A DNA stretch of 4,783 nt. Source: Escherichia coli. GTDB taxonomy: Bacteria; Pseudomonadota; Gammaproteobacteria; Enterobacterales; Enterobacteriaceae. How positions within the stretch are numbered: the first letter of the stretch is position 1; each line of letters opens with the position of its first letter. The position numbers were made by a program, and so were the translations under genes. The DNA lies in assembly GCF_003334815.1 (NCBI RefSeq), contig NZ_QOWO01000075.1; one strand, given 5' to 3'. Below, one piece after another: positions 1,478 through 4,783 of this stretch. Below the pieces are notes generated by a model, which was given only the letters and a program-made list of their open reading frames with translations, searched no databases and was not told where the DNA came from.

Positions 1478-1837
1478 GTTCCTCTCCTGTTTATGCCTTT
1501 TCCGGGCGTCCCCCTGGCGGGGCGGGCTGTCGTGAACGGAGCCAGCGGAGCTGTCTCCGCCCTGGCGGGCTTCCATCCCTGACGCAAAACCCCGGGTTTG
1601 CAGCGACCGGAACGGTCGCGCCACCCTTGTCGCGCCGTGGCCTGCGCTCCTGGCATCCCGGCAAAAAGACGCCGGGATGTAAGGCGCAACGCCGTTTCGC
1701 GCACGCGCTCTCCGTCGTTGCGGCGGGTCCCTGCTCATTGCCTGCCGGGTGCCACACACCCGTATGAGTCCCTGTCGCCGGGGGCTGATACAGCCACAAC
1801 CTGCCGCACTGACTGTCCAGGGTAAATGAACAGCCCA

Positions 1838-1873
1838 CAAAATTTTTTACCCAGAACCCGGTAAAAAATTTTG
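1838..1873. other. Perfect 14-bp AT-rich inverted repeat (CAAAATTTTTTACC / GGTAAAAAATTTTG) with 8-nt spacer
   Basis: Arms 1838-1851 and 1860-1873 are exact reverse complements. Flanked by a further imperfect pairing, 1813-1821 with 1882-1890 (8 of 9), suggesting a longer imperfect hairpin centred near 1855. Confidence 0.8.
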
Positions 1874-2252
1874 CGTTCTGCCCAGGACAGGTGCGTCAGG
1901 CCGTGGCAGTGATGCCCCTTGCGGCGAAGGTTCTCAAACGGGTGAAGTTCATACCACAGGGAATACAGCAGCAGGTTCCCGCGAAACGTCAAAACCGCGG
2001 CTCCCGAAACTCAACGGGTGATGTTCTTTAAAAATCAGGATTTATTTCAGGCTCCGGCAATACGCATTTATGTGTTCTGTCAGCATCCTGCTGACAGGTA
2101 ATGAGAACGCAGGAACAGAAGGAGGAATACACCGGAAAACGTCAGATGCAGATATGAAAAAAGCAGGTCAGGGACCTGCTTAATCCACGCCGAAGAGACT
2201 GTGCAACCAGTCTTTAAGGCACTGTTACCAACCTGTCATAAGGTATCCATTT

Positions 2253-4609: not shown

Positions 4610-4654
4610 ATTGCGCGGACGTTCTGCTGTGGACTTCTGTCTTTTCAGAACGGT

Positions 4655-4783
4655 CATTTGTCTGTTACTGATGATGTTGTTGTTCCTGCTACTGCTACTG
4701 CTACTGTTCTTCTTTTTTCTGCTGCTCTGATTACTGTCTGTTTTGTTGTTCTCCTGCTTATGCCTTTTCCGGGCGTCCCCCTG
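4655..4783 (+). promoter_or_regulatory. Start of a second copy of the Frpo/ssi-like element (truncated by window end)
   Basis: 4751-4783 (ctcctgcttatgccttttccgggcgtccccctg) matches 1484-1516 at 32 of 33 positions. Upstream there are shared ttactgttcttctt and ctgatgtt blocks plus a different simple-repeat tract. Confidence 0.6.
4670..4750. repeat. Compound simple-repeat tract: (GAT)2(GTT)3 at 4670-4684, (CTGCTA)3 at 4686-4703, T-rich pyrimidine run
   Basis: Direct reading of the sequence; differs in unit and copy number from the tract at 1449-1477 in copy 1. Confidence 0.9.

Follow-up and report, generated by a model that had tools for sequence, protein, structure and literature searches.

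Frpo (ssiD) was described in 1997 and, according to reviews and later papers, its single-stranded form folds into a stem-loop that presents -35 and -10 sequences to Escherichia coli RNA polymerase. In vivo, the leading genes downstream depend for their early expression on the two F plasmid copies, Frpo1 and Frpo2 (PMC9849209), and Frpo and ssi1 to ssi3 are now named class 1 single-strand promoters, with start sites mapped by 5' RACE (PMC12672017). Frpo and ssi transcripts also prime complementary-strand synthesis (bioRxiv 2026.01.09.698686). The leading genes are reported to be silent in donors and to be switched off after conversion to duplex, and a review states that holoenzyme and SSB suffice for Frpo in vitro. 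Frpo hairpins have been described as containing, besides a -10 and a -35, a UP element that is rich in A+T and lies upstream of the latter (Samuel et al., PMC11541004), and in the reviews and later papers on Frpo and ssi that were searched, no positions of the -35, -10, UP element, or +1 are stated in the text.

A Frpo-type element in an IncF leading region

The window (the whole stretch of DNA analyzed, 4,783 nucleotides) is the leading region of an IncF conjugative plasmid and matches more than 5000 plasmid records, mostly conjugative plasmids of Escherichia, Klebsiella, Salmonella, and Shigella. The best match is an IncFIA, MOBF conjugative plasmid, on which genes for a methylase, a klcA-type antirestriction protein, and a DUF1380 protein are followed by a noncoding stretch, genes for a DUF3560 protein and a SAM methyltransferase, a second noncoding stretch, and then ssb, a parB-like gene, psiB, psiA, and the transfer genes, all on one strand. 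The window genes are plus-strand genes oriented in the direction of ssb, psiB, psiA, and oriT, and the minus strand is thus both the transferred strand and the template.

The noncoding stretch at 1283 to 2252 holds a unit of ∼540 nt, of which the same plasmid has two more copies, one of them ahead of ssb. Its identity is 91.8% to Frpo2 of F and 82.9% to Frpo1 (both over ∼526 nt), and in F Frpo2 the arms of the tip are identical to those in the window and a single loop base differs. Three features of class 1 promoters are present, namely a location in the leading region, homology to Frpo or ssi, and a long stable hairpin on the transferred strand. The perfect palindrome within this unit, which is the subject of this study, is almost certainly the apical stem of a Frpo2-type single-strand promoter. 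The element is a near-copy of the promoter described in 1997 and restudied from 2023 to 2026, and is already known; the A/T tip is part of the published Frpo sequences, and the palindrome is most likely the "UP element" drawn in published figures. The palindrome itself therefore adds little new, and the additions made here are modest ones drawn from sequence comparison: an apparently invariant core, ends that seem to covary, a recurrent G.G mismatch, and a tip that may be exchangeable.

Enterobacterial Frpo-like sequence, 73 to 92% identical to the window element, is also present on two contigs labeled Streptomyces morookaense (L069 and L070), and is probably contamination of the Streptomyces assembly. 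These came from a scan of a genome contig collection with the 15-mer GCGAAACGGCGTTGC, a pattern too short for that collection, in which nearly all matches were chance ones and only L021, L050, L069, and L070 were real relatives.

Other features of the window lie around the element. Positions 1 to 200, upstream of klcA (201 to 626), hold one arm, the one nearer the gene, of a class 2 single-strand promoter (ssp2/"Frpo3"); the full class 2 hairpin is present at L001:7850-8200 and, in F, at L002:6400-6760, and its 3' arm on the transferred strand carries TTGCAT-15-TAAGAT. Pyrimidine-rich (CTT)n-like tracts, which are purine-rich on the transferred strand, precede each class 1 unit (1432 to 1490 and 4640 to 4757) and differ in length between copies and in F. 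The only Rfam match in the window is on the minus strand at 2158 to 2258, an antisense RNA resembling RF02875 AS-pc01 (68.7 bits against a gathering score of 79, E = 5e-11) that has a sigma-70-like promoter, TTTACA-17-AACAAT with a TG (2293 to 2265), and a terminator hairpin (2181 to 2161), and that overlaps the ribosome-binding site and start of a 76-aa open reading frame (ORF) at 2253 to 2483.

Structure and conservation of the hairpin tip

On the plus strand the left and right arms of the palindrome read CAAAATTTTTTACC and GGTAAAAAATTTTG, respectively, and are exact reverse complements of 14 bp separated by the 8-nt spacer CAGAACCC, as a first, sequence-only reading of this DNA had described. 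It is the longest perfect hairpin in the window, and in 300 dinucleotide-preserving shuffles of the whole window (hairpin loops of 3 to 20 nt), the longest perfect hairpin was 6 to 11 bp and never reached 12 bp. That reading also placed the palindrome in an AT-rich island within GC-rich surroundings, which agrees with the base composition (69% A+T in the 36-nt palindrome unit and 66% G+C in the flanking sequence from 1501 to 2000), and proposed flanking complementarity between 1813-1821 and 1882-1890, which is correct for eight of the nine positions, the ninth being a T.T mismatch. An Rfam search of the window gives no match at the palindrome.

On the minus strand the palindrome forms the tip of a long imperfect hairpin (Table 1), so that its suggested place in a stem of a single-strand promoter element is borne out by both fold and homology. 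The minus-strand fold of 1480 to 2060 has z = -7.4, and the hairpin is more stable on the minus strand than on the plus strand (-66.1 versus -58.3 kcal/mol) and has more G.T pairs (four versus two), which fits with function on the transferred strand. The tip stem (CGCAAAATTTTTTACC/GGTAAAAAATTTTGTG) consists of the palindrome extended by a G.T pair and a C.G pair, below which are, in order, an aa/gg mismatch, CAG/CTG pairs, the bulge confined to the 3' arm, GGG/CCC pairs, a T.T mismatch, CTGTCC/GGACAG, a 3-nt bulge, and a stem of ∼17 bp. These are followed by an internal loop (C-atc-AC-t-G on the 5' arm and C-t-GT-atca-G on the 3' arm), GGGGC/GCCCC, and a further ∼30 bp. Two -35-like hexamers flank this conserved loop, TGGACA on its tipward side in the 3' arm and TTGAGA on its baseward side in the 5' arm.

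Table 1. Positions of the class 1 element and its parts in the window (the minus strand is the transferred strand)
Feature	Positions	Strand	Remarks
Whole repeat unit, ∼540 nt	∼1491..2030	-	Common to the plasmid's other Frpo copies and to F Frpo1 and Frpo2
Main imperfect hairpin, 74 bp	1754..1948	-	Class 1 (Frpo-type) single-strand promoter
Full apical stem	1836..1875	-	16 bp including one G.T wobble; dG ∼ -12.6 kcal/mol
Right palindrome arm	1860..1873	-	Minus strand reads CAAAATTTTTTACC; 5' arm of tip
8-nt spacer	1852..1859	-	Minus strand reads GGGTTCTG; fold narrows the loop to 4 nt, GTTC
Left palindrome arm	1838..1851	-	Minus strand reads GGTAAAAAATTTTG; 3' arm of tip; would be the nontemplate side in the tip-to-base model
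8-nt bulge, TTCATTTA	1823..1830	-	3' arm, between the tip and the -35-like duplex
-35-like TGGACA	1814..1819	-	Pairs with 1884-1889; first T mismatched (T.T)
Candidate premelted -10, TGTATC	1787..1792	-	Conserved internal loop, opposite 1908-1914; putative, from the tip-to-base model
Putative transcription start zone of plus-sense RNA	1919..1922	+	On the template arm, ∼7 nt beyond the -10 loop

Comparison of 39 copies from 20 loci, together with the published Frpo and ssi sequences, shows that the tips are varied. Type 1 tips, including those of F and ColIb, have the form CAAAA(T/G)TTTTT../..AAAAA(T/G)TTTTG with a loop of 4 to 8 nt; type 2 tips (Klebsiella and Serratia) read AAATTTTTTTCGGCC/GGCCGGGAAAAATTT with a 20-nt loop; and the short type 3 tips have CGCGG-TTTA-CCGCG in place of the palindrome. 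A fourth tip is present in a Raoultella copy, the 3' arm of which still contains CAAAAAA. Class 1 copies within one plasmid differ in their tips in L131 (K. pneumoniae pC250_1), L133, and L134, where the tips are A/T-rich and extended, short and GC-rich, or of a fourth type (L134, near 9721), and this suggests that tips may be exchanged between copies.

Seventeen distinct type 1 tips from IncF, IncI, and Salmonella relatives were aligned for covariation, and the tip helix is paired in 92% of the cells of this small and related set, for which the shuffle control overstates significance. Six A/T pairs are invariant, at the G/C ends five pairs have changes in both partners (e.g., ACC/GGT versus GCC/GGC), and the central pair is T.A in 7 of the 17 tips and a G.G mismatch in 10. 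With A/T pairs that are invariant and G/C ends that covary, selection appears to act on the A-tract/T-tract sequence as well as on pairing. In one IncI copy, a T-to-A change repairs the T.T mismatch of ColIb ssi.

Conservation extends below the tip. When a ColIb copy is compared with IncF plasmids by BLAST, alignment is limited to a single block that begins at CTGTCC, includes the palindrome, and reaches CCCCTGGAC. The sequence CCCTGGAC is almost invariant across the family, with the first T of TGGACA in a G.T pair in relatives, and all relatives have an asymmetric loop with CAT(T/C)T at the position of the bulge (8 to 13 nt, in the 3' arm only), which could serve as a hinge or as a single-strand contact. 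Even short-tip elements retain this CAT(T/C)T bulge, which separates the tip from the TGGAC duplex.

At a coverage of 80% or more, the 149-nt short-tip element matches at least 2708 plasmid records, and one Klebsiella plasmid carries a short-tip copy at the position of the window element, upstream of the DUF3560 and methyltransferase genes, and has A/T tips on its other copies. The palindrome is thus kept in homologous elements of IncF, IncI, and Salmonella relatives, although the short-tip subfamily lacks it, which makes it an accessory module and not the core of the promoter. The A/T tip would accordingly be expected, from these comparisons, to contribute at most an accessory function.

The same evidence bears on the proposal that TAAAAAAT, in the palindrome, is an easily melted -10 within the stem and thus part of the promoter core. 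The region does melt easily and TAAAAA agrees with TATAAT at four of six positions, but there is no -35 partner at the proper distance of 16 to 19 nt, the hexamer varies (to GGCAAAAAG or GGGAAAAATTTA in relatives), with the leading T lost in most homologues, and the stem is perfectly paired, the conserved mismatched loop of the family being elsewhere. Together with the absence of the palindrome from the short-tip subfamily, these points leave the -10 reading with scarcely any chance of being correct. A start just downstream of the palindrome is likewise not expected, as the candidate -10 loop is ∼45 nt further down the stem and the start would lie beyond it, in the zone listed in Table 1.

Orientation of the promoter and the part played by the tip

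The results above establish the identity, structure, conservation, and dispensability of the palindrome, and we infer an orientation for the promoter, a promoter numbering, and a contact with the alpha subunit; on balance, the palindrome is probably the UP-like upstream end of a hairpin promoter that is read from tip to base, as well as its stable cap. In this tip-to-base model, the minus strand of the window would enter the recipient single-stranded during conjugation, and its main hairpin would fold and mimic duplex promoter DNA for the host sigma-70 RNA polymerase, driving early and transient expression of the 76-aa ORF, the DUF3560 gene, and the methyltransferase gene until complementary-strand synthesis removes it. 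The 3' arm would be the nontemplate strand, with TGGACA as the -35, a spacer of ∼18 bp (plus the 3-nt bulge), and the mismatched loop TGTATC as the -10. Transcription would proceed from the tip to the base, toward the genes, and the palindrome, being neither the -10 nor the -35, would cap the promoter-distal end. On the assumption that the 8-nt bulge is looped out of the helix, its A6T4 duplex would lie at about -47 to -56 and could be a UP-element-like dock for the alpha C-terminal domains, raising promoter strength. On the same numbering, the A/T tract would be at -47 to -55 in ColIb and at about -49 to -58 in R100-type elements, and the hairpin arm would extend from ∼ -60 at the tip to ∼ +30 at the base (∼ +20 in the construct of Samuel et al.), which is about the length that an RNA polymerase covers on a promoter.

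Several observations favor the tip-to-base orientation. The functional Frpo2-acrIIA4 fragment of Samuel et al., which drives acrIIA4 from the transferred strand, starts at GTCCCTGTCGCC and ends at GTCCC, and when it is folded TTGAGA and TTGACG are unpaired and TGGACA and the loop are still in the stem. A clear TTGCAT-15-TAAGAT is found on this arm of the class 2 hairpin as well, pointing the same way, and the sequence ahead of it, TTCACTTTACCC, is similar to TTCATTTACCC-TGGACA in the window element. Salmonella variants have, at the homologous place, TTGGAT or TTGCGC, 16 nt ending in TGc, and then TAC..., with nothing comparable on the other arm, and the block conserved between IncI and IncF elements is the tip and the TGGAC duplex. 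In addition, the pair formed by the first base of TGGACA is never a Watson-Crick pair but T.T or T.G, so that the duplex plasmid reads AGGACA or CGGACA, which fits with a promoter that functions only when the strand is folded. In the duplex sequence from 1280 to 2300, a scan found no plus-strand promoter of the sigma-70 consensus type.

The palindrome arms each match the UP distal consensus AAAWWTWTTTT with one mismatch and are the best matches in the window, although any A/T palindrome tends to match. The invariance of the A/T core points to a readout of sequence or shape, for which the simplest candidate would be two alpha C-terminal domains.

The -10 candidates of the tip-to-base model (TGTATC, TGTCTT, and TACTCC) lack the canonical A-11/T-7 pattern, and a position-weight-matrix scan for -35/-10 pairs in 13 diverse copies gives no candidate that is consistently best, so the promoter orientation is not fixed by sequence alone. 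A promoter running from base to tip, which is rather unlikely although it has several points in its favor, would have TTGAGA-17-CATCAC on the 5' arm and take the 3' arm as its template, and the palindrome would be a structural cap or turn-around: RNA polymerase, and later DNA polymerase III with UvrD, would go up the stem, round the loop, and down again, with the short-loop palindrome nucleating folding, the A/T tip being easy to melt, and a U-rich transcript perhaps setting the ends of primer RNAs. By position-weight matrix, TTGAGA-17-CATCAC scores equally well or better in F-type copies, and it is a recurrent match among copies of the F, Serratia, and insect types, in which the -11 position is an unpaired A; Klebsiella-type copies have TAAACG or TAAACC as the -10. 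The 5'-arm block TTTGAGAACCTTCGCCGC is also more conserved than its pairing partner, and Frpo transcripts are reported to act as primers. However, the functional Samuel et al. construct contains nothing for TTGAGA to pair with, and the candidate is weak or absent in the IncI and Salmonella types despite their having the same architecture. As for the cap, a GC tip of 5 to 6 bp caps the hairpin in thousands of plasmids, and capping alone leaves the invariant A/T core unexplained.

The TTGAGA hexamer is contained in one copy of a direct repeat, AACGGGTGA(A/T)GTTC (transferred strand, TCACCCGTT(T)GAG), at 1937 to 1950 and 2013 to 2026, the other copy of which is near the end of the repeat unit.

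Further candidates were considered and rejected. TTGTGG-17-GACAGT would place the 8-nt bulge inside the spacer and leave ∼9 bp of helix, and the short-tip subfamily lacks that TTG; TTGACG-17/19 in the basal extension is unpaired in the Samuel et al. construct and absent from IncI copies. An intrinsic terminator is excluded by the A/T-rich stem and by a scan that gave no terminator-like site at the palindrome.

Two additional readings concern the palindrome as a site or structure in its own right. The first, which the sequence-only reading raised in part, is that a dimeric or DNA-bending protein (such as Fis, IHF, HU, H-NS, or one encoded by the plasmid) recognizes the A-tract/T-tract duplex, either within the folded hairpin or in double-stranded plasmid DNA, and that the promoter is thereby modulated, or silenced in donors. 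Fis sites have a G and a C 14 positions apart around an A/T center, and GCAAAATTTTTTACC has this Fis-site-like arrangement; moreover, the invariant A/T core and the G.G center in 10 of the 17 variants suggest a readout beyond pairing. Nonetheless, we consider a dedicated protein site quite improbable, as the palindrome is dispensable in a large subfamily, no such factor is named or suggested in the Frpo literature searched, and holoenzyme and SSB are all that is needed in vitro, according to a review. The second reading is that the palindrome nucleates a cruciform, its perfect A/T center lowering the barrier to extrusion in the supercoiled plasmid and giving some promoter activity in the absence of conjugation. 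A/T-rich centers favor cruciform extrusion, and here a perfect 14-bp center lies within a 195-nt imperfect inverted repeat. The 8-nt bulge and the many mismatches disfavor a long cruciform, however, and the reported silence of the leading genes in donors and after conversion to duplex also speaks against it, such that this reading is highly improbable.

Returning to the tip-to-base promoter, a broader interpretation, which is speculative and on the whole unlikely, is that the tip is an exchangeable strength module: its UP-like duplex would exist only in the folded strand, its sequence would itself be selected, and a swap to a GC tip would tune induction of the operon on entry. In a more radical variant of this idea, two quasi-symmetric promoters would share one premelted loop, with mRNA made from tip to base and primer RNA made from base to tip and ending at the A/T tip. 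Frpo-type promoters turn on antirestriction, anti-SOS, and other antidefense genes within minutes of the entry of a resistance plasmid, and a division of the hairpin into core and accessory parts would help in predicting the strength of gene induction across plasmids and in designing synthetic single-strand promoters.

Comparison with UP elements and described single-strand promoters

The palindrome resembles the UP elements of sigma-70 promoters (e.g., rrnB P1) in having an A-tract followed by a T-tract that matches AAAWWTWTTTT at 10 of 11 positions, and in being upstream of a -35-like hexamer at what would be -47 to -56. It differs in that the candidate in the window forms by intrastrand pairing, is separated from the -35 by an 8-nt bulge, and has no proximal AAA subsite. 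The class 2 promoter (ssp2/"Frpo3," upstream of klcA) is likewise a long hairpin of the transferred strand with a 3'-arm promoter directed toward the base and a TTCAC(T)TTACCC-TTGCAT context, but it has a branched apex with no A/T-rich tip and a much better -10 (TAAGAT).

Relationships are closer within class 1. The short-tip elements of Klebsiella, Enterobacter, and Citrobacter (Frpo' 5/6 of Samuel et al.) share the basal stem, -10 loop, bulge, and TGGAC with the window element, with CGCGG-TTTA-CCGCG replacing the palindrome and the CAG/CTG pairs. Frpo1 (ssiD) of F and ssi1 to ssi3 of ColIb-P9 have the same hairpin architecture and a CAAAA.TTTTTG/CAAAAA.TTTTG tip beside CTGTCC and CCCTGGAC, but their tips are mismatched (G.G, T.T, or A.A) whereas that of the window is perfect, and the basal halves of the ColIb-P9 ssi and IncF elements are not alignable. 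Frpo2 of F (ssp1b, upstream of ssb) has the same arms, bulge, TGGACA, and loop as the window element within its 91.8% identity, and differs in its setting: the copy in the window precedes a small ORF and the DUF3560 and methyltransferase genes, an operon that F lacks, and a further copy is located before ssb.
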